A DNA stretch of 47,797 nt, from the IMG/VR virus record IMGVR_UViG_2571042438_000008; one strand, 5' to 3'. Made by a program: the position numbers and the translations under genes. Below are positions 1-47,797 of this stretch, one piece after another. Below the pieces are notes generated by a model, which saw only the letters and a program-made list of their open reading frames with translations, was not told the DNA's origin and searched no databases. This stretch comes from a virus (lineage: Duplodnaviria; Heunggongvirae; Uroviricota; Caudoviricetes). Within the stretch, counting starts at the first letter, position 1; every line of letters begins with the position of its first letter.

Positions 1-289
1 GGTTGAAGATGTAGTAAATAGCTTGGGTGGAGAGGTAAACATAACAGAATGGTTTGAAACATCACCACCTGGCGAACCATATACAGCCTCAATTGTTGCT
101 TCGATTAACTCTTTTGATGGTGCTGTTCCTTCGAAAGAGATGTTGGAGGATACGTTAAGAAGTATCAAGAGTGCAAAGTCGGCAAGAACACTATTTACAT
201 TTTCGCAAGCAACCAATGTTTCAGGTGGTGTTGGTATTGTCGGTGCTTTCCAGCCTGTGTCTTATGTACGATTAATTGGTGAGTGCTAA
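1..289 (+). CDS. 3' end of P2 gpI-like baseplate protein gene; continuation of 47254..47797 across the circular junction (1..251 duplicates 47547..47797)
   Basis: In-frame continuation of the ORF open at the window end; motif NITEWFETSPPGEPY resembles the P2 gpI family as recalled; stop at 287-289. Confidence 0.6.
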   Translation, partial: VEDVVNSLGGEVNITEWFETSPPGEPYTASIVASINSFDGAVPSKEMLEDTLRSIKSAKSARTLFTFSQATNVSGGVGIVGAFQPVSYVRLIGEC

Positions 290-319: not shown

Positions 320-3166
320 GTGAGTAAATTATTATTTACGATGACTGACGCCGGGCGTAAGGCGCTGGTTAATGCCAACAAGACTGGAACAAATAAAGTT
401 GAGATCGTTTCTGTTGGTTTAGGTAGTAGATATTATGCCACATCAACCACACAAACAAAAATAACAGATGAAATAAAGCGACTTACCACAATAGGAGGCA
501 AAGTCGTTTCTCCTGATACCATTCATGTAACTGCGAAGGATGATAGTAAAGATGAGTATGCTGTCCATACAATAGGTTTGTATACAAATAAAGGAACATT
601 GTTTGCTGTATACTCGCAAGAACAAGTAATAATAAATAAAGCATCTTCTACAATTGCTTTAATATCAAGTGATATAGCAATTAAAAATCTTGATACTAAA
701 AACATTACATTTGGTGATGTTGAGTTTATTAACCCTCCCGCAACCGAAACTGTTGTTGGAGTAGCAAGATTTGCTAATGAACAAGAAATTGATGCAGGTA
801 CAGATGATTCCCTGGCTGTTTCAGCAAAGCGGCTTAAGCAAGCTATTGTAAAACATGAGCAATCACGTAATCATCCTGATGCAACTTTAACATCAAAAGG
901 CATTGTTCAACTCAGTAATGCCACCAATAGCACGTCTGAAAAGCTCGCAGCGACGCCTAAGGCTGTTAAGGCTGCATATGACCTGGCTGACGGAAAATAT
1001 ACCGCCCAGAATGCCACCACGGCACAAAAAGGGATAGTTCAGCTCAGTAGTGCCACTAACAGTACGTCTGAAACGCAGGCGGCAACGCCAAAAGCGGTCA
1101 AGGCAGCAAATGACAACGCAAATTCACGTCTGGCGAAAAATCAGAACGGTGCAGATATCCAGGATAAATCAGCTTTTCTGGACAATGTTGGCGTTACCAG
1201 CCTGACGTTTATGAAAAACAATGGCGAAATGCCGCTTGATGCTGATCTGAATACGTTTGGTCCTGTTAAGGCTTATTCAGGTATCTGGTCTAAAGCAACA
1301 TCCACCAACGCAACACTGGAGAAAAATTTCCCGGAAGATAATGCTGTCGGTGTGCTTGAGGTTTTTGCTGCCGGCAATTTTGCAGGTACGCAACGCTTTA
1401 CCACGAGAGACGGCAATGTATACATGCGTAAACTCGCCAATAAGTGGAATGGCACTGATGGTCCGTGGGGCGTATGGCGTCACACTCAATCTGCTACCCG
1501 CCCTTTGAGTACGACTATAGACCTGAATACGCTTGGAGCCGCCGAGCATCTTGGTTTATGGCGTAACAGTAGCTCAGCTATAGCTTCATTTGCCCGCAAT
1601 TATCCGGAAGAAGGGAGCTATGCTCAGGGGATTCTCGAAGTTCTTGAAGGCGGCGGATATTCGCGAACACAGCGTTACACTACCAGTCGTGGAAATATGT
1701 ATGTACGCTGCCTTACCGCAAGCTGGGATGCATCAAATCCGCAGTGGGGACAGTGGCTAAGAATCGGCAGCCAGACTGCAAGCGGTTTCTTTGAAGGCGA
1801 TCTGAATAATCTGACCGATCCTGGTATTTACAGTGTTACAGGAAAGGCAACAAACGGTCCGATGCTGGACGCTGCTGGGGCGACATTGCTTGGGATACTG
1901 GAAGTAATCAGGCGTTTTGATGGTGTATCTGTCTGGCAGCGTTACACAACCACAGGAAAATCAGAAACCACACAGGGGCGCACTTTTGAGCGCGTCTACG
2001 CCGGGAGCACATGGACCGAATGGCGAGAAGTGTATAACTCCTTTTCGTTGCCCCTGAATCTGGGTATTGGCGGCGCAGTGGCAAAACTCACCAGCCTGGA
2101 CTGGCAGACCTACGACTTTGTGCCGGGCAGTCTGATAACCGTTCGGCTTGATAACATGACCAACATTCCCGACGGTATGGACTGGGGCGTCATTGATGGT
2201 AACCTGATAAACATCGCTGTTGGCCCAAGTGATGATACCGGTACGGGGCGCTCAATGAAGGTATGGCGCAGCACTGTAAGTAAAGCCAACTACCGCTTTT
2301 TTATGGTGCGCATTTCAGGAAATCCGGGAAGCCGCACGATCACAGCAAGACGAGTACCAATCATTGACGAAGCCCAGACATGGGGCGCGGAACAGACATT
2401 CAGCGGTGGTCTTTCAGGCGAACTATCCGGCAATGCTGCTACAGCAACAAAGCTGAAAACGGCAAGGACAATTAACGGCGTAAAATTTGACGGCTCGGCA
2501 AATATTGAAGCGTTTCCGCCAGGTGTTCCGCTGCCGTGGCCATCAGATACGCCACCTGCAGGTTATGCAATCATGCAGGGGCAGACGTTTGATAAGGCAG
2601 CATATCCGAAACTGGCTATTGCCTATCCTTCTGGTGTTATTCCAGATATGCGCGGCTGGACAATCAAGGGCAAACCCGCCAGTGGTCGGGCCGTATTGTC
2701 TCAGGAACAGGATGGCATTAAATCGCACACCCACAGTGCCAGCGCATCCAGTACGGATTTGGGTACGAAAACCACATCGTCGTTTGATTACGGTACTAAA
2801 TCAACGAATAACACAGGTGCACATACCCACAATGTATCTGGTACTGCAAATAGTGCTGGCGCACATACTCATACCGTTCCATTAAGGAGACCAAACAGTG
2901 GCGGTATGAATTTCGACTGGCTGGATGGTTCATCAAGTGGCACGGTGGTGGGGAATGGAACTGTGCCTTCTTCTGGCGCACATACCCACTCAGTATCAGG
3001 TACCGCTACAAGTGCTGGGGCACATGCACACACTGTTGGTATTGGCGCTCATACGCACTCTGTTAAGATTGGTTCACATGGACACACCATCACCGTTAAC
3101 GCTGCTGGTAACGCGGAAAACACCGTTAAAAACATCGCATTTAATTATATTGTGAGGCTTGCATAA
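320..3166 (+). CDS. Tail fiber protein (P2 gpH / Mu S-like), 948 aa
   Basis: Position after the gpJ/gpI baseplate genes; two copies of the phage tail fibre repeat ([25 protein letters not shown]); three beta-rich internal repeats; C-terminal His-rich GAHTH.V repeats. Confidence 0.85.
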
Positions 3167-4725: not shown

Positions 4726-4740
4726 ACCACGTAACGTGGT
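4726..4740. promoter_or_regulatory. Repressor-type operator dyad ACCACGTAACGTGGT in the repA upstream region
   Basis: Perfect 5-N5-5 inverted repeat identical in arms to the three dyads in the cI/cro-like intergenic region; followed directly by TATGAT (4741-4746). Confidence 0.5.
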
Positions 4741-5904: not shown

Positions 5905-6385
5905 GTTTTGATATGTATATGCAAATGGTTTTTTATAATAGATGCACTAAACAAATAAATGCAAAATCACTTTCTTTTATTAAGACTTTCTTTATTTAAC
6001 TTACGCAGGCTTTGCCTGTGAATATGTTCGCCCTTGCAGCGAGCTAAAGCTCGCGCCGGTTCGAGTCGCTACGCTCAAATATACCTCCTCCGGCACTTGC
6101 CGGAGGCATGGAGCAGCCTGATCATCCTTTTCGAAACGGCGCGTTTCGAACTATACAAAATCAATTTATATAAGGCCGAAATAAGGCCTACGGCCGGGCT
6201 TTGCAGGAGGAAGGGGCGAGCCTTATCAATAAACGTCGAGAAATACGCACACAGTAGCCATCAGAACGCGATAAAACGTAAGAAACATCATTTCCTATTA
6301 GACATAGAAAACTTGTCTTATACGCAATGTAGTAAATTTCTATTGCCACATAGGAAAAGATTTCCTACCATCGTAGATATAATAA

Positions 6386-6685
6386 ATGGAGATGGTTATG
6401 GATAAAGATACTGTTTTAAAAATGTTGAATCCGGCTTGTTTAAAAAAAGCGGATGAATGGGAATCTCCTACATGTGGAGAAGTTCGGGCAGTCATTGGCC
6501 TCACCGGAATGAGTGGCTCGCAGTTGGCCAAAAAACTAGGCTTAAAAGATAGTCGCAATGTTCGCAACTGGCAGATGTTAAAGGAGTCCACATCCAGATC
6601 CAGCATTCCGTATGCAGCCTGGGCGCTGCTGTGTTACTTCGCTGGGTTAGGGTTAATCTTCATTGATAACAAAACAGATGTTTGA
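6386..6685 (+). CDS. Small XRE-type HTH protein with hydrophobic C-terminus
   Basis: HTH-like segment LTGMSGSQLAKKLGLKDSRNVRNWQ; C-terminal AAWALLCYFAGLGLIFI. Confidence 0.4.
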   Translation: MEMVMDKDTVLKMLNPACLKKADEWESPTCGEVRAVIGLTGMSGSQLAKKLGLKDSRNVRNWQMLKESTSRSSIPYAAWALLCYFAGLGLIFIDNKTDV

Positions 6686-8247: not shown

Positions 8248-8335
8248 ACCATTGCTGAAATGTCTTTTTCAAGACCTTGCCAATAAGCTAAACAAAAATG
8301 TTTAATGTGCAGCCTAAAAAAGCACCAGTCACTAT

Positions 8336-8448
8336 TATTTATATAATTATAGATTTATATAAAAAGTGCTTTACGGGTGGGAAAAAATTTCCTATGGTTA
8401 TACCCGAAACCGAGCGATACCCGCCCTGGTTAAACCGGAGATAACCCG
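8336..8448 (+). promoter_or_regulatory. Promoter-leader cassette, copy 1 (AT-rich dyad motif, -35 TTTACG 8370-8375, 17-nt spacer, -10 TATGGT 8393-8398, conserved leader, GGAGA RBS)
   Basis: ~88 bp near-identical to 17311-17398 and 24189-24276 (two substitutions seen in this copy); sigma70-like hexamers with 17-bp spacing. Confidence 0.55.
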
Positions 8449-8829
8449 ATGAGCATGATTAAAATCCGCAAAAACGCTTTCCTTAAAATTCAAACTATCC
8501 TGGCTGGTTCTGTCGGCGTGATTTGCCGTTCTTCTTCAAGCCGCATCGATGACGGCTACGATGATGAGTATCGTGTGTCCTCGTGCGATGAGGCTTTAAC
8601 CTGGCTGAAGGAGAATCAGGAACGTGCCCAGGTATATCTGGAAACAGAGAACGGCAATCAGATGCTGCGTATTAGCGGTCGTTATGGATTTGAAACTACA
8701 TTCATGGCCTATTTTAATCAGGCTTACTTTGACAAGGAGCTGGCCTGGTACACTGACCGCATGAGCAAAAGCGAGCCAGCCCCGATTACACCGCCGAACA
8801 ATAAACCATTTTTATTCCTCGTTAAGTAA
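8449..8829 (+). CDS. Hypothetical protein (126 aa), first gene after cassette copy 1
   Basis: ORF with GGAGA RBS 9 nt upstream; no recognisable domain. Confidence 0.5.
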   Translation: MSMIKIRKNAFLKIQTILAGSVGVICRSSSSRIDDGYDDEYRVSSCDEALTWLKENQERAQVYLETENGNQMLRISGRYGFETTFMAYFNQAYFDKELAWYTDRMSKSEPAPITPPNNKPFLFLVK

Positions 8830-8892: not shown

Positions 8893-9166
8893 ATGACGGG
8901 TTATGAATTGAAATTATGGCGTCGTGGGATGAATTGGACGCAGGAGCGAGCCGCTGAAGAGTTTGGGATATCGTTGGCTACATATAAGCGATATGAGAAG
9001 GGTGAGCCGCCGAGGGGGCATTGAGATGGCCATTCGCGTTCTGTCGTTTGACGATATGGTTAAGGATCTTTCACACCTTGATAAAGATGCGATTCTGTTA
9101 AGGCTGCAAACCCTTGTATGGGAAAAGGTTAAAGTGTCGTCAGAATTGGAACAAGGGATCAAATGA
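8893..9166 (+). pseudogene. XRE-type HTH protein gene interrupted by a +1 frame change at a G5 run (9014-9018)
   Basis: GAGGAGG RBS then ATG 8893; HTH-like segment LWRRGMNWTQERAAEEFGISLATYKRYEKGE; frame 1 stops at 9022-9024 and the sequence continues in the +1 frame to 9166; removing one G would give a single 90-aa ORF. Confidence 0.4.
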
Positions 9167-11399: not shown

Positions 11400-11658
11400 T
11401 CGAGGCTAATCAAATGGTGGTGAGCCGTACAGGGTTAGCCTTACCGGACACAATGACGAACCGGCGCGGATTTCTCCGCCCCTGTACGACCCACCATAAT
11501 TTGGGCGTAACAGTGCTCTACGCATAAAAAAACCGCTAACGCGGTATGCGCCATCGTGTTATTCAGGAGGCTAATCCCGGCCGTAGATTTTGCTACGGCT
11601 CGGAAAGTGTCCACCAATGGCGCATTTATGTCAATACGGCGGGATTTTAACAGAGACA

Positions 11659-11673: not shown

Positions 11674-12116
11674 TTTATTGGTAGGCAGAAACAAAAAAAC
11701 CGCCCTATTGAGGACGGTTCTTTCGTGCTGATCGGATTCGCGGTCCTTTCAGCATTACGTTGTTGTATAAACAACCACGCAAGCACAAGCAGCAAGTTAA
11801 TTTTACCCAAAAGGTAATAATAGTCCACTATTATGCTTCAAAAAATTGTGGTTCTTGTTGTGCCTGCAAACTCACAGATTGTGGGTAGGTTACTGATTTT
11901 GTGAAAATAAACGAGTTTTTTCGTTTAATTTCTTTCCTATTACTAATCTTAAAATAATCGTAAAATACCTGTGGACCTTCCCGCCGATTCGCACCCGGGC
12001 ACCGACTTTAGGGGAGGATTCTCCGTTGCCGTACATGCAAGCACAAGCAGCCGTGCTTGCTCTCGCGTTGTTTTCGTCGGTGGGGATGCCGTGAAACGGC
12101 CTGTAAGGGCCATACA

Positions 12117-12239
12117 ATGAAAAAATACTGTATGTGTATTTTTATCGTTGTTACTGGGGCTTTGTTTACGCCACATGGGGAGGGTTGGAAGATTACTGAT
12201 AACGCTCTGAATGTGACGATAAACATTAGCAGCAAGTAG
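12117..12239 (+). CDS. Small hydrophobic peptide (40 aa; MKKYCMCIFIVVTGALF...)
   Basis: ATG 12117 in an otherwise ORF-poor, hairpin-rich region; followed 7 nt later by a strong intrinsic terminator. Confidence 0.3.
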   Translation: MKKYCMCIFIVVTGALFTPHGEGWKITDNALNVTINISSK

Positions 12240-12245
12240 CGATTA

Positions 12246-12268
12246 GGCCCCTTCGGGGGCCTTTTTTT
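12246..12268 (+). terminator. Rho-independent terminator
   Basis: GGCCCC-TTCG-GGGGCC stem-loop followed by T7. Confidence 0.8.
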
Positions 12269-12490: not shown

Positions 12491-12739
12491 TTACTTCTGG
12501 TTGTATTGAGCCTTGAGTAACTCAAAAGACTTTGTCAGCACTTCTTTCAATGACATATCCATTGAGCTGGCGAACGTTTTGTACTCGCGTTTAAATTCAG
12601 GGTCGACGTTAAACGCCATTTGTGCCCCACCTGATTTGGTTCTGGTTGGCGTTTCAGTCGGGTCGAAAACCTGCGGTTGTTCGATCGATGGCGGTACGCC
12701 TTTGCTGTTCTTCTTTGGTGGTTTTGATGGTGCGGCCAT
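12491..12739 (-). CDS. ParG-like ribbon-helix-helix centromere-binding protein
   Basis: 82 aa; basic N-terminal tail (PSKPPKKNSKG); C-terminal FNVDPEFKREYKTFASSMDMSLKEVLTKSFELLKAQY resembles the ParG/RHH family; directly downstream of parA. Confidence 0.5.
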   Translation of the reverse strand: MAAPSKPPKKNSKGVPPSIEQPQVFDPTETPTRTKSGGAQMAFNVDPEFKREYKTFASSMDMSLKEVLTKSFELLKAQYNQK

Positions 12740-12782
12740 GTGTATCCCCTCTTATATAAATCTATAAAACTATAATTATATA

Positions 12783-13451: not shown

Positions 13452-13586
13452 GTGTTTGGTTATATAATTCTATAAATCTATATTTATAGAACGAGGTAAG
13501 CATAACCAACTTTTTGGCTGATGAAAAGCGTTTTATATAATTATATAAATCTATAATCATATAAGCGGGCGTTAGCCCGCTTGCAG

Positions 13587-14053: not shown

Positions 14054-14710
14054 TCATAACCAGTTGACAACACTAACTACGCGGCCAAGAACTTTATAAC
14101 GCTTAAATTCCTCGTTATTCAGATGCTTAGTGTTCATTTCAGCATCCCTTTCGGTTGACAGCATAACAGCATTGTCACCCGGTATGACTCTACAGTGCCT
14201 CAAAACAACCAGGCCATTTCTGTCTTCAAGGGCATAGATCCCCTCATGAATCTCTGTATCGTCTGTATTAATCAGGACTTGGGAGCCTGGGGATATTGTT
14301 GGTGACATTAACTCATCGTTGCTCTGGAGAACTGACAGAGACGATGGGTTGATGTTCTTGCTTCGTAGAATCTCCTGTTCTATCGCCAGCACTGGCTTTT
14401 CTCCGGCGTGCGATGCTATGTCATTTTTTATAGCTACAAGCCCAGGAATAACAGGAGCGTTAGTATTCTGGGGTGGGAACGGGTTATCTGTTAAGCACGC
14501 GATATAAGGCGCTGATGCTTTCAGGGCGTGCGCGATTTTCTTGATGGCAGGTATAGATGGTTGTCTTAATCCGGCCTCATAGTTCTGCAAGGTGCTTAAG
14601 CCTATTCCAGTGACTTGCTGGAGATCTCCGGCAGTCATGCCGGATTGTTTCCGTAGAGTCTGAATGCGCAGACCTATTTCTTTCTTGATGTTCTCGTCGT
14701 TGCTTTTCAT
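14054..14710 (-). CDS. CI-type prophage repressor (N-terminal XRE HTH plus C-terminal S24/LexA-like peptidase domain)
   Basis: HTH-like segment MTAGDLQQVTGIGLSTLQNYEAG; 218 aa with a C-terminal S24-type fold as judged from the translation; divergent from the cro-like gene with operators between. Confidence 0.85.
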   Translation of the reverse strand: MKSNDENIKKEIGLRIQTLRKQSGMTAGDLQQVTGIGLSTLQNYEAGLRQPSIPAIKKIAHALKASAPYIACLTDNPFPPQNTNAPVIPGLVAIKNDIASHAGEKPVLAIEQEILRSKNINPSSLSVLQSNDELMSPTISPGSQVLINTDDTEIHEGIYALEDRNGLVVLRHCRVIPGDNAVMLSTERDAEMNTKHLNNEEFKRYKVLGRVVSVVNWL

Positions 14711-17286: not shown

Positions 17287-17404
17287 AATCTATAAATATA
17301 TAATTATAGATTTATATAAAAAGTGCTTTACAGGTGGGAAAAAATTTCCTATGGTTATACCCGAAACCGAGCGATACCCGCCCTGGTTAAACCGGAGAAA
17401 TCTG
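17287..17404 (+). promoter_or_regulatory. Promoter-leader cassette, copy 2 (dyad AAATCTATA-N12-TATAGATTT, -35 TTTACA 17327-17332, -10 TATGGT 17350-17355, conserved leader, GGAGA RBS)
   Basis: Near-identical to copies 1 and 3 over ~88 bp; 17-bp spacer. Confidence 0.55.
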
Positions 17405-18472
17405 ATGAATAAACAAGTAATTATTTCTGACTGGATCAACAACCCTAACAGCCTGTTAAGCACTGATACTGGCTACCTATTACGCCATGTTAATGGTCGT
17501 ATGGTCAAAAGCGATGAGCACGAAACCTTTTTCTTTGTTGAAGACGATGGGCGTATCTATGAGGATGGTTACTCTTATGAAGCCCAAACTGGTTGTATCC
17601 CTGCGGAGCTGGTGGACGTAACAGAAGATCTGCGCAAAGCATGGCTTGAACAGCAGCAGCGCGGAGATGATTACGTAAACACCTATCAGGAACGCCAGAA
17701 CGCGCGTCTTGCCCGATATATTGCTCGTGCAGAAAAAGCCAGAAAAGAAGGTGCGGTAGCGCATAAGCGAGCGCATGACCTGTTGGATGTGATCCCGTTA
17801 GGCCAGCCGATTTTAGTTGACCATTATAGCGCGAAAGGCCATCGCCGCCGTTTGTCTAAAGCTGATGCGTTATTCAGAAAAGCGTTTGTTGAATGCGAAA
17901 GTAAAGCATCACACTACGAGAGCAAAGCCGCAGGTGTTGGTCGTAATGGAATTTCGTCTGATGATCCTGATGCGCTATTTAAGTTGCTTCGTAAGCTGCA
18001 AGGCTGCATGAAGTCACACGTCAAAATGAAGGCCGCAAATAAGGCCATTCGCAAATACAAAAAAGACCAAATACAGCAGCTTTCTGCATTAATCGATCTC
18101 AGGTTTACAGAAAGCGAAGCCAAAGAGTTACTGGCCGGAGATTTCTGTGGGCACATCGGATTCCCTTCATACGCACTGAGCAACAATAACGCCGAAATCA
18201 AACGACTACAGAGCCGTATTAAGGAGCTTGAATCGGTCAAGTCTGTAACAGGAGCACAGCGCGAAGAATACGACGGCTTTTCTATGGAGATAGATCCAGA
18301 GGATAACCGCATCCTGTTTTATTTCCCTGGCAAACCAGAGGCAAACATTCGTTCGCTGCTTAAATCACGCGCCTTTAAGTGGAGTCCAACCCGTAATGCA
18401 TGGGTTCGCAAGATTACTCCAAACGCCCTGGCTGATGCCCGATATCTAAAAGAATCGCTATTGAAAGCCTGA
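17405..18472 (+). CDS. Large hypothetical protein (355 aa), first gene after cassette copy 2
   Basis: Start set at ATG 17405 (GGAGA RBS); the upstream ATG 17351 lies in the conserved leader. Confidence 0.6.
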   Translation: MNKQVIISDWINNPNSLLSTDTGYLLRHVNGRMVKSDEHETFFFVEDDGRIYEDGYSYEAQTGCIPAELVDVTEDLRKAWLEQQQRGDDYVNTYQERQNARLARYIARAEKARKEGAVAHKRAHDLLDVIPLGQPILVDHYSAKGHRRRLSKADALFRKAFVECESKASHYESKAAGVGRNGISSDDPDALFKLLRKLQGCMKSHVKMKAANKAIRKYKKDQIQQLSALIDLRFTESEAKELLAGDFCGHIGFPSYALSNNNAEIKRLQSRIKELESVKSVTGAQREEYDGFSMEIDPEDNRILFYFPGKPEANIRSLLKSRAFKWSPTRNAWVRKITPNALADARYLKESLLKA

Positions 18473-18482
18473 CAGTAAGCCT

Positions 18483-18504
18483 ACGGCGGGACGTCTCCCG
18501 CCGT
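18483..18504 (+). terminator. GC-rich hairpin after 17405..18472
   Basis: CGGCGGGA-CGTC-TCCCGCCG stem-loop; weak U tract. Confidence 0.35.
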
Positions 18505-18528
18505 ATATAGAATTATATATTTATACAA

Positions 18529-18831
18529 ATGTATAAGGACGCCTCGACAATGAAACGCAAAATTATTAACCCCCAAGATGTGATTAATTTCCTGACCGAT
18601 CACCCATGTTCAAAAGTGGACGTAATCGCGGAGCACATTGGTGTGTCGCAGAACTCTATGCGTTGCAGACTGAGAAGCATGGTTGCCGAAGGACAGATAA
18701 CAACCAGGAAAATAAATGGTTGCCTGTACTACTCCGCTAAACCGGAATTGCCATTTGGCATGAATCCTAACTCCATGTTGTTTAACACCTTATTAGCCAA
18801 AGTTAAGCCGTTGAGAGGGGCTGTGGCATGA
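18529..18831 (+). CDS. Putative winged-HTH protein
   Basis: 100-aa ORF; DVIAEHIGVSQNSMRCRLRSM resembles an HTH. Confidence 0.4.
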   Translation: MYKDASTMKRKIINPQDVINFLTDHPCSKVDVIAEHIGVSQNSMRCRLRSMVAEGQITTRKINGCLYYSAKPELPFGMNPNSMLFNTLLAKVKPLRGAVA

Positions 18832-23030: not shown

Positions 23031-23199
23031 TATATATTTCTATAATTATATAAATATATAGTTACAACATTCTATGCGCTTTTCTCATGGGCGCACGCAT
23101 CAACCATGTTTGTCTGATATGCCGCCGCGCCCAAAAATCCTGAATTTATTGGCTGGGATTTTCGTGCGCGGCGCCACACCAGACAAACAGATCAAATAT

Positions 23200-23583: not shown

Positions 23584-24171
23584 ATGGAGGCAATTGCATT
23601 GTTTAATCTGATTTATGCAGATCCCCCCTGGGAATACAAAGATAAGTGTAAGGATGGGAATCGTGGAGCTGGTTTTAAGTATCCAACGATGAAAGCTGAG
23701 GATATTGCTCGTATTCCTGTCTGGCAGCTTGCTAATCCTGAATCGTGTTTGTTGGCCATGTGGTGGGTTCCGACTCAGCCAGAAGAAGCGTTGCTGGTGG
23801 TGAAAGCATGGGGATTCAGGCTTATGACCATGAAGGGCTTCACATGGAACAAATGTGGTAGCCGACAACCAGATAAGCTGGTGATGGGGATGGGGCATAT
23901 GACTCGTGCAAACAGTGAAGATTGCTTGTTTGCGGTAAAAGGCAAATTGCCGACCCGCCTTGATGCGGGGATCATTCAGTCGTTTACATCGCCTCGTCTG
24001 GAGCATTCTCGGAAGCCTGATGTGGTTCGTGACAAGCTGGTAAGGCTGTTAGGTGATGTTCCTCGTATTGAGCTGTTTTCTCGCGGTGATTTACCTGATG
24101 GTTGGCATGGCTGGGGCAACCAGTGCAATGGAGGTATCCAGTTGCATGATGCTCTCTGGCAAGTGGCATAA
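23584..24171 (+). CDS. MT-A70-family N6-adenine methyltransferase
   Basis: DPPW motif (LIYADPPWEY) and family-typical N-terminal layout. Confidence 0.8.
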   Translation: MEAIALFNLIYADPPWEYKDKCKDGNRGAGFKYPTMKAEDIARIPVWQLANPESCLLAMWWVPTQPEEALLVVKAWGFRLMTMKGFTWNKCGSRQPDKLVMGMGHMTRANSEDCLFAVKGKLPTRLDAGIIQSFTSPRLEHSRKPDVVRDKLVRLLGDVPRIELFSRGDLPDGWHGWGNQCNGGIQLHDALWQVA

Positions 24172-24282
24172 AATTATATAATTATATATTTATATAAAAA
24201 GTGCTTTACAGGTGGGAAAAAATTTCCTATGGTTATACCCGAAACCGAGCGATACCCGCCCTGGTTAAACCGGAGAAATCTG
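24171..24282 (+). promoter_or_regulatory. Promoter-leader cassette, copy 3 (-35 TTTACA 24205-24210, -10 TATGGT 24228-24233, conserved leader, GGAGA RBS)
   Basis: Near-identical to copies 1 and 2. Confidence 0.55.
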
Positions 24283-24552
24283 ATGAAAGTACAAGACCGT
24301 GAAGTAGTAAAAAACCTCCTGCAATACCTGACCTCAAAAAACCTGACGGGCAGCGTTGAGTTCCGTGAAGCGTTAAAACATTTCAACGTCACTACGGTTT
24401 ATCGTTGGGAAAACAAACATTCTGAAAGACCGTATGTGGTGGATGTTTTTGCGCCTGATATTGAGTGCGGTTTTGAGCGTCATTCGTTCAAGGAGAAACA
24501 TTCTGCTGATTTTTTTTGTGAGGTTGTATGTGCGGCAGGAGATGATGAGTGA
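24283..24552 (+). CDS. Hypothetical protein (90 aa), first gene after cassette copy 3
   Basis: Start set at ATG 24283; the upstream ATG 24229 lies in the conserved leader. Confidence 0.5.
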   Translation: MKVQDREVVKNLLQYLTSKNLTGSVEFREALKHFNVTTVYRWENKHSERPYVVDVFAPDIECGFERHSFKEKHSADFFCEVVCAAGDDE

Positions 24553-24749
24553 TGCGTATTTCCTTCAAACGTGCGACTGAGCAGCAACGCAAAGAGTTCC
24601 TGGCTGATGATGTTGCGGCCGTTTATGACCTCATGAAAGAGGTTGTGGAATCAGGGAACTACACGGCGGCAAAGATGCTTAAACTGCAATTCTTGCTGGG
24701 CGACCTGAAATACAAATCCGAAGTTGTCGCCGGACGACGCGAGCATTAA
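24549..24749 (+). CDS. Hypothetical small protein
   Basis: 66-aa ORF overlapping the upstream stop. Confidence 0.4.
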   Translation: MMRISFKRATEQQRKEFLADDVAAVYDLMKEVVESGNYTAAKMLKLQFLLGDLKYKSEVVAGRREH

Positions 24750-24771
24750 ACCGTAACGATAACGAACAACG

Positions 24772-24798
24772 AGCCTCGGCAATTGCCGGGGCTTTTTT
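24772..24798 (+). terminator. Intrinsic terminator
   Basis: AGCCTCGGC-AATT-GCCGGGGCT stem-loop followed by T6. Confidence 0.8.
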
Positions 24799-47261: not shown

Positions 47262-47797
47262 TATCTTTAATGTTAGCTTGTTGGATGTTTTACCTCCTAA
47301 CTTAGCTAGCGATCCCAACGTGATAGCTATGTCGAAAGCTATTGATGATGAACTACAAGCAATTAACAATTTAATATATAAGACAGAAATATATAGCGTT
47401 GTTGATAACCTGGACTCAGTTGTTCTCGATCATTTAGCTTGGCAATGGAATGCTGATACATGGAGGGATAGTTGGCCTGTATTGTTAAAGCGTTCTGTTT
47501 TTAAATCAATAATACGAACAAAGCGAATAAAGGGTACAAGGGCAGCGGTTGAAGATGTAGTAAATAGCTTGGGTGGAGAGGTAAACATAACAGAATGGTT
47601 TGAAACATCACCACCTGGCGAACCATATACAGCCTCAATTGTTGCTTCGATTAACTCTTTTGATGGTGCTGTTCCTTCGAAAGAGATGTTGGAGGATACG
47701 TTAAGAAGTATCAAGAGTGCAAAGTCGGCAAGAACACTATTTACATTTTCGCAAGCAACCAATGTTTCAGGTGGTGTTGGTATTGTCGGTGCTTTCC
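47254..47797 (+). CDS. Baseplate gpI-like protein, 5' part (open at window end; continues at 1..289 through the terminal duplication)
   Basis: ATG 47254 overlapping the gpJ-like stop; ORF not terminated within the window; frame matches 23..289. Confidence 0.65.
   Translation, partial: MADIFNVSLLDVLPPNLASDPNVIAMSKAIDDELQAINNLIYKTEIYSVVDNLDSVVLDHLAWQWNADTWRDSWPVLLKRSVFKSIIRTKRIKGTRAAVEDVVNSLGGEVNITEWFETSPPGEPYTASIVASINSFDGAVPSKEMLEDTLRSIKSAKSARTLFTFSQATNVSGGVGIVGAF
47547..47797. repeat. Terminal direct repeat: 47547..47797 is identical to 1..251
   Basis: Read directly: both begin ggttgaagatgtagtaaatagc and end gtcggtgctttcc. Confidence 0.9.

Follow-up and report, generated by a model that had tools for sequence, protein, structure and literature searches.

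Does the ATG that lies inside a promoter-like cassette of a phage-plasmid begin a short regulatory peptide, a longer form of the gene downstream, or no protein at all? The question arises from the 47 797-nucleotide (nt) stretch of DNA analysed here (hereafter the window; IMG/VR virus record IMGVR_UViG_2571042438_000008), a circular element of ~47.5 kb in which the cassette occurs three times on the plus strand: copy 1 at 8334–8448 (repeat family D3, three-copy alignment), copy 2 at 17291–17404 and copy 3 at 24169–24282 (both from repeat search, alignment and promoter scan). The ATG of copy 1 (8394) opens a 16-codon open reading frame (ORF), MVIPETERYPPWLNRR* (8394–8444, plus strand), whose TAA stop occupies 8442–8444, with the ATG of the downstream gene (8449) beginning 4 nt later. 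The corresponding ATGs of copies 2 and 3 (17351 and 24229) run in frame into the genes at 17405 and 24283 to give MVIPETERYPPWLNRRNL-M..., the junctions translating as ...NRRNL-MNKQV and ...NRRNL-MKVQD, respectively, and 17351–18472 and 24229–24552 are reported as the longest ORFs in the ORF listing.

The original prediction described these frames, and the translations agree with it on all three copies. It also stated that no ribosome-binding site precedes the ATG in any copy, and indeed no Shine–Dalgarno (SD) sequence was found at −5 to −12 of ATG 8394, 17351 or 24229, the upstream sequence being GGGAAAAAATTTCCT in every copy; the annotated gene starts are preceded by GGAG 7–8 nt upstream. 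We consider it very probable that ATG 8394 is part of a sigma-70-type −10 element and of an operator, that the upstream ORF (uORF) it opens is fortuitous and not translated, and that the three cassettes are promoters repressed by a KorC-type protein.

Predicted promoter, operator and leader around the ATG

The cassette is a module of ~115 bp with the order TATA array, −35 hexamer (TTTACR), operator, −10 hexamer (TAnnnT), 5′-untranslated region (5′-UTR), SD sequence GGAG, spacer and ATG. The −35 hexamer was TTTACG in copy 1 (8370–8375, plus strand) and TTTACA in copies 2 and 3 (17327–17332 and 24205–24210, plus strand), TTTAC being invariant in 40 distinct copies, and the −10 hexamer was TATGGT in all three (8393–8398, 17350–17355 and 24228–24233, plus strand), with variants in relatives. 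The two hexamers stand at sigma-70 spacing, as TTTACA-17-TATGGT in copies 2 and 3, where the promoter scan found it, and as TTTACG-17-TATGGT at 8370–8398 in copy 1, which the general promoter scan missed because of its TTTACG. The ATG of copy 1 (8394–8396) makes up bases 2–4 of the −10 hexamer.

The promoter spacer is filled by an operator-like 17-bp palindrome, TGGGAAA-AAA-TTTCCTA (8378–8394, 17335–17351 and 24213–24229, without strand), which ends on the ‘TA’ of the −10 hexamer, its final A being also the A of the ATG. Its consensus is T(R)GGAAA-N3-TTTCCTA, with a core of RGGAAA-N3-TTTCCT and a central triplet that varies (AAA, AGA or ATA). Exactly four such sites occur in the window, and allowing one mismatch gave 10 strand-matches against 0.8 expected. 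Downstream of the −10 hexamer lies a 5′-UTR of ~43 nt with a small conserved hairpin (8408–8431, plus strand; stem-loop AACCG-A-GC ... GC-C-C-U-G-GUU in the RNAalifold consensus), followed by the SD sequence of the real start (GGAG, 8437–8440, plus strand) and an SD spacer of 7–8 nt. The motif CCGGAG is invariant in all families, those of IncP-1 plasmids (treated below) included. No further copies of the leader blocks were found elsewhere in the window.

The variation of the −10 hexamer among relatives bears directly on the question. Cassettes were gathered from viral, metagenomic and genome contigs and from relatives reached via the DUF3560 protein encoded downstream of copy 2; E. coli-type copies (40 distinct) are termed family A, and those of Klebsiella, Enterobacter, Citrobacter and Salmonella relatives family B. 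In the 40 distinct family A copies the hexamer was TAAGGT (20), TATGGT (15), TATGAT (2), TAGTGT (2) or TAATGT (1). Bases 1, 2 and 6 (T, A and T) never differ, whereas no site in the cassette varies more than position 3, a pattern typical of a sigma-70 −10 element and not of a start codon. An ATG was thus present at this position in 17 and absent in 23 of these copies, and the plaque-forming Yersinia phage vB_YpM_41 has AAG in all three of its cassettes.

Family B is equally informative. The cassettes of the E. coli and the Klebsiella, Enterobacter and Citrobacter families share 86–90% identity, against 50–75% for the flanking genes, and the family B palindrome has perfect 7-bp arms (TAGGAAA-ATA-TTTCCTA). 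A 1-nt indel just 3′ of the −10 hexamer moves the family B ATG to another frame, and because of this frameshift the peptides of the two families are unrelated: that of family B is MVTTRNRAIVALVKPEKTR*, which opens MVTTRNRAIVALV..., i.e. MVTTRNRAIV... against MVIPETERY... in the window. Distances of 54, 55 and 56 nt from ATG to ATG were all seen, i.e. all three frame relations. Since TAnnnT remains constant while frame and peptide shift, the element is conserved as DNA or RNA and not as a peptide.

The stop codon of copy 1 had been attributed to a substitution relative to copies 2 and 3. The TAA is there, but what the alignment reveals is a pair of spacer alleles, ATAACCCG (8 nt) between GGAG and ATG in copy 1 and AAATCTG (7 nt) in copies 2 and 3, which differ by one indel and two substitutions; the TAA falls within this variable spacer (8441–8448). 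Both alleles were found 5′ of the copy 3 gene in other genomes, with or without the ATG. Whether the ATG opens a 16-codon ORF, as in copy 1, or an 18-codon in-frame extension, as in copies 2 and 3, is a by-product of the spacer allele that a copy carries. Open frames come easily in this leader, two of whose three frames are open: 59% of shuffles of its 52 nt kept at least 16 codons open downstream of the ATG. On the minus strand, too, ORFs span the cassettes (17290–17463 and 24174–24392), and the family B indel would shift these as well.

The original prediction had taken the region to be leader rather than coding, and had rightly located the ATG in the −10 region. We agree that it is non-coding, but ‘leader’ is imprecise for the ATG itself, which lies ~7–11 nt upstream of the predicted transcription start, so that the cassette's own transcript would lack it.

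Copies within one genome usually, though not always, have the −10 variant and spacer allele in common. The third base of the −10 hexamer is T, T, T in the three copies of the window and A, A, A in vB_YpM_41, and the three copies on the contig of another relative are likewise identical. This sharing of alleles suggests gene conversion between cassette copies.

A KorC homologue and the IncP-1 promoters

A candidate for the protein that binds the palindrome is encoded in the window. A KorC-like helix-turn-helix (HTH) gene of 95 amino acids (6398–6685, plus strand; assigned from homology and a structural model) lies between repA and higBA, and its promoter (TTGCCA-17-TACCAT, 6343–6371, plus strand) contains the fourth palindrome, TAGGAAA-AGA-TTTCCTA (6351–6367), a perfect copy in a register identical to that of the cassettes. 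This palindrome is kept in the Salmonella relatives despite their diverged flanks. The 95-amino-acid protein shares 48% identity (E 2e-18) with the protein annotated as KorC in the IncP-1 plasmid pLME1, and a 52%-identical homologue is found on IncP-1 contigs between klcB and kleE, beside korA-incC-korB, in the order klcA-klcB-[gene]-kleE-korA. Its only matches in the PDB were the C-terminal HTH domain of AcrIF24 (E 1.6e-7) and Aca3, and its AlphaFold2 model (mean confidence, pLDDT, of 84) had AcrIF24, Aca1 and Aca2 as top Foldseek matches. Judged by these similarities and by the positions of the palindromes, the protein is a KorC homologue and a candidate for repressing both its own promoter and the three cassettes.

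The homology extends to the promoters. The regions upstream of klcA and kleA of IncP-1 plasmids align almost gap-free with the cassette from the −35 hexamer to the ATG, and blastn searches with the IncP-1 module matched the upstream regions of both genes. The shared layout consists of AAAGTGCTT(G/T)ACAGG, TAGG...N3...CCTA ending on the −10 hexamer, the leader ACCG(A/G)GC...CGC, ACCGGAGAA, and ...CCGATG. The cassette −35 is homologous to AAAGTGCTTGACAGG of the klcA and kleA promoters, and the palindrome of the latter, TAGGGCATT(A/T)TGCCCTA, has the same register as that of the cassette. We take this palindrome of the klcA and kleA promoters, i.e. TAGGGCAT..ATGCCCTA, to be the KorC operator OC; kleC is presumably a third KorC target in RK2. 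The IncP-1 −10 hexamer stands at the same place and reads TATAAT, TAATAT or TAAAAT, again in keeping with TAnnnT, and therefore contains no ATG; the ATG was absent from this position in all seven IncP-1 homologues examined. The cassette, to judge from its sequence, is real and adds a new member, located in a phage-plasmid, to the KorC/OC promoter family. Since it is a relative of KorC-controlled IncP-1 promoters, the ORF within it is ordinary, neither a gene nor a leader peptide.

The likeness to the kil-kor systems of IncP-1 plasmids (RK2/RP4/R751 type) thus covers a homologous repressor; a palindrome of 7-3-7 layout with outer TAGG...CCTA that ends on the TA of the −10 hexamer; a homologous −35 context, leader, SD sequence and distance to the ATG; and a module repeated ahead of several short operons in one replicon, one of which begins here with a gene of the type found in the leading regions of conjugative plasmids. 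There are also clear differences. The replicon here is not a conjugative plasmid but a phage-plasmid with myovirus-type structural genes and an IncFII-type RepA; in its inner bases the operator has GGAAA instead of GGGCA; the korC-like gene has its own operator-bearing promoter; and the downstream genes differ. The KorA operator GTTTAGCTAAA, which lies upstream of the −35 hexamer in the IncP-1 modules, was absent from the cassettes, where TATA arrays take its place. In RP4, KorA and KorC hold klcA, which encodes an anti-restriction protein, at a very low level; when the plasmid enters a new cell, no gene is induced more strongly than klcA (~220-fold; PMC7314908).

All solved structures related to the 95-amino-acid protein belong to the Aca/AcrIF24 autorepressor systems, which share with the circuit proposed here the logic of a strong promoter subsequently shut off by a self-made repressor. 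The inverted repeat bound by AcrIF24 sits between the −35 and −10 elements (PMC9001735), and Aca inverted repeats overlap core promoter elements, one Aca being able to control two operons (PMC12658196). Unlike in Aca systems, the repressor gene here lies outside the operons that it would control, the similarity is at the domain level (~30% identity), and searches against PDB sequences identified no known anti-CRISPR or anti-defence gene downstream of the cassettes.

Several points weigh against the interpretation of the cassettes as KorC-type repressed promoters. While architecture, conservation and homology are observed, the transcription start, protein binding, repression and timing are deduced from them; the promoter itself is predicted from consensus and conservation, and a −10 hexamer such as TAAGGT is weak. 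The family A operator carries one mismatch in its left arm (TGGGAAA), and the invariance of the ‘TA’ could stem from the operator as much as from the −10 hexamer. The TATA arrays could be UP elements instead of protein-binding sites. Finally, scans of the cassettes found no terminator upstream of copies 2 and 3; transcripts reading through from the upstream genes would include the ATG, from which strains that have it might occasionally translate an extended form.

Other readings of the ATG and the leader

We hold it to be rather unlikely, though worth weighing, that the leader serves as a cis-regulatory RNA in addition to the promoter and operator, independently of the ORF, as a protein-bound 5′ stem-loop or a stabilizer that determines translation or mRNA lifetime. 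From phage-plasmids to IncP-1, no part of the module is better conserved than the leader blocks, although this conservation could equally reflect a DNA site. The hairpin at 8408–8431 is 100% paired in 12 distinct sequences, against 24–49% in slid controls, with one compensatory A-U/G-C pair; as the only covarying pair, it probably represents a single evolutionary event. Single-sequence z-scores were only −1.7 to −2.4, and no Rfam family matched the cassette at E-values up to 10. Aca2 has been reported to bind RNA and regulate translation (PMC12658196).

An activator-dependent middle or late promoter of the P1 Lpa type, in which the palindrome would be an activator site and the cassettes would switch on lytic genes, appears improbable. 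P1 late promoters are likewise repeated phage promoters with an inverted repeat in the core (9 bp; PMC10695390), and P1 too is a plasmid-prophage with a C4/antirepressor region such as the element carries. The weakness of the −10 hexamers and the absence from the cassettes of CI-type operators (CCAC-N5-GTGG), which are present elsewhere in the window, would also fit. However, the cassettes have a good −35 hexamer at 17-nt spacing, and the candidate binder of the palindrome is a homologue of the repressor KorC with a site in its own promoter, a layout of autorepression. The units driven are short and are not late genes or morphogenesis or lysis operons, and PHROG scans flagged no Lpa-like or Q-like protein.

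The mechanism that the original prediction had kept in reserve, a regulatory leader peptide, we regard as highly improbable. It supposes that ribosomes start at the upstream ATG, on read-through transcripts at least, and that translation of the 16–19-codon frame modulates expression of the downstream gene. The frame is open in every ATG-bearing copy, in several family B copies the stop overlaps or abuts the gene ATG (ATGA/TGATG), suggesting coupling, and copies 2 and 3 are not set off by a terminator from the genes upstream. A short ORF between promoter and gene that ends beside the gene start also recalls trpL, pheL and ermCL. Unlike in those cases, the start is not conserved (the ATG is missing from 23 of 40 distinct family A copies and from all IncP-1 homologues), an SD sequence is lacking, neither peptide nor regulatory codons are conserved, alternative hairpins for termination are absent, and transcription is predicted to start downstream of the ATG. 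The peptide is unrelated between families through the frameshifting indel, the frame relation takes all three values, also where the gene is the same, and chance alone leaves the frame open in most shuffles. No terminator or antiterminator was found in the cassettes, the sole structure being one small hairpin. The leader-peptide hypothesis thus failed each of the tests made, those of start, SD sequence, peptide, frame and terminator/antiterminator.

It is scarcely credible that the copy 2 and 3 proteins truly begin with MVIPETERYPPWLNRRNL at the upstream ATG, even though the frame is continuous in the window, as the same genes stand elsewhere behind AAG or a frame-breaking 8-nt spacer, in orthologues at 70% identity the upstream ATG stands in a different frame, a strong SD sequence precedes only the downstream ATG, the starts chosen by PGAP and phage annotators and the PHROG profiles all coincide with that downstream ATG, and DUF3560 homologues (355–364 amino acids) cover the query from residue 1 with no N-terminal extension.

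Downstream genes, TATA arrays and the phage-plasmid

If the cassettes are KorC-type repressed promoters, as we favour, the module would head three short transcription units: the 126-amino-acid gene, the DUF3560 gene, and the 89- and 66-amino-acid genes. The 126-amino-acid gene behind copy 1 (8449–8829, plus strand) matches phrog_8090 over residues 1–126 of 126. It is followed by an XRE-type HTH gene (8893–9166), which copy 1 would also drive and which is intact (90 amino acids) in vB_YpM_41 and frameshifted in the window, where it is split after approximately residue 41; the broken gene is either a pseudogene or a sequencing error. Copy 2 precedes the gene for the DUF3560 protein (355 amino acids, 17405–18472, plus strand; PF12083, and phrog_6744 over residues 1–355 of 355), with a hairpin 3′ of it at 18486–18503. 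The copy 3 operon (24283–24794, plus strand) comprises the 89-amino-acid gene (24283–24552), the 66-amino-acid gene (24549–24749) and an intrinsic terminator (24771–24794; 10-bp stem, seven G-C pairs and a T-run). The 126- and 89-amino-acid proteins, and a 96-amino-acid protein encoded beside the KorC-like gene, had no matches in the search against PDB sequences.

More distant DUF3560 relatives occupy the leading regions of conjugative plasmids: DUF3560 proteins of 43–55% identity were seen beside ssb, psiB, ardA-like, DndB-like and relaxase genes. These plasmid neighbourhoods fit an establishment or anti-defence role for the gene behind copy 2. The conjugative-plasmid homologues at 55% identity have no cassette, and a contig scan with the DUF3560 protein gave only remote Clostridia and other relatives, all without one.

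The TATA-core array directly upstream of the copy 1 −35 hexamer (8340–8361, without strand) has an 8-bp period. Others lie at 17289–17318, 24167–24196, 12755–12782, 13463–13490, 13534–13563, 18506–18535 and 23031–23066, making 25 matches at eight intergenic loci against 0.08 expected. They are found in the three cassettes, on both sides of the parA promoter, in the gap between parA and an 82-amino-acid gene, and 3′ of both the DUF3560 gene and the lysis genes. These positions are syntenic in family B, and arrays persist around the par promoters of all families, though the promoter cores differ. In the parA promoter region (13452–13566, minus strand), TTTTCA-17-TATGCT stands between two TATA arrays, an arrangement also seen in other families; the core can be aligned with the cassette promoter, which suggests that the two are paralogues.

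The 82-amino-acid protein encoded downstream of parA (12491–12739, minus strand) is ParG-like by position and architecture and is 91–95% identical between families, compared with ~70% for the DUF3560 protein of the E. coli family and family B. Its AlphaFold2 model shows a disordered basic N-terminus and two C-terminal helices (pLDDT 70–84). The partition proteins ParG, omega and KorB double as transcription regulators through repeated sites. As with KorB/OB of RK2, ParG of TP228 and omega of pSM19035, short iterated sites here flank a par promoter and recur by other promoters, and a small conserved protein is encoded 3′ of a small Walker-type ParA. The 82-amino-acid protein is a candidate centromere- or array-binding protein. 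Searches gave no support for a ribbon-helix-helix fold, neither Foldseek nor the PDB-sequence search returning a significant match to the protein.

An exact 251-bp terminal duplication in the window (1–251 = 47547–47797) indicates that a circular assembly was read past its start. Besides the IncFII-type RepA, HigB/HigA, the KorC-like HTH gene, and ParA with the 82-amino-acid protein, the element encodes a CI-like repressor, an antirepressor operon with C4- and isrK-type RNAs, an early operon with Ref and DUF1064, lysis genes, a tRNA, MT-A70 and myovirus-type structural genes. Near-identical elements were found as 65 plasmids of 46–50 kb in PLSDB and in 74 of 5426 complete E. coli genomes, including that of ATCC 25922 (a 48 488-bp member), and the Yersinia phages vB_YpM_39, vB_YpM_41 and vB_YpM_44 also match. 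Almost all of these carry three cassette copies. A literature search found no publications on this phage-plasmid family. The cfr-carrying conjugative plasmid p0083-27kb (NZ_CP140467.1) holds a fragment of the phage-plasmid, comprising ParA, HigB/A and a hypothetical gene, in which cassette copy 1 is cut 3′ of the −35 hexamer by IS26.

Some further features of the element were observed in passing. Palindromes of the form CCAC-N5-GTGG(TT) occur at 4727, 11660, 13998, 14749, 14832 and 14852 and are likely operators of the CI-like repressor (14054–14710, minus strand); they lie upstream of repA, the isrK/C4/antirepressor operon, the 124-amino-acid and par genes and the early operon, which recalls the dispersed C1 operators of P1. 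Matches above the Rfam gathering score were obtained for C4 antisense RNA (11413–11501, minus strand), isrK (11526–11599, minus strand) and ryfA (11971–12267, plus strand). This region adjoins a 399-amino-acid antirepressor (ORF6N and Rha domains) and resembles the immI type of P1/P7; the repeat GATTAGCCTC flanks C4 and looks like a C4 target. Antisense control of the cassette by C4-like or other RNAs of the element was considered and rejected, as no complementary partner was found and a 10-nt match to C4 was same-sense. Imperfect direct repeats of 33–63 nt lie at 2816–3037, within a 948-amino-acid ORF (320–3166).

How the cassettes might work together can be sketched from their homologues. 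In a repressor-free cell the three cassette promoters would fire; a KorC-like dimer, made from its own operator-bearing promoter, would then bind across the spacer and −10 hexamer and shut down all four promoters, that of its own gene included. By analogy with KorB, the small partition protein may act through the TATA arrays as a second layer of control, and the ATG would be part of the −10 hexamer that is free to vary. We tentatively propose, at a little under even chances, that a kil-kor-type circuit has moved into a temperate phage-plasmid, giving an entry burst of three operons followed by repressor shut-off, with TATA arrays in place of KorA/KorB co-regulation.

For annotation, the case counsels caution: an ATG in a −10 box followed by an open frame resembles a uORF or the start of a longer gene, and start sites could be misassigned as a result. 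As a by-product, the cassette has been identified as a relative of the KorC-controlled klcA and kleA promoters, complete with a KorC homologue, which yields a model, open to testing, of how three operons of unknown function might be regulated. If the proposed circuit is correct, the DUF3560, 126-amino-acid, and 89- and 66-amino-acid genes would be candidates for establishment or anti-defence functions, and the arrays shared with the par promoter might be bound by the small partition protein. The kinship suggests that the ‘zygotic induction’ circuitry of plasmids is shared with phage-plasmids.

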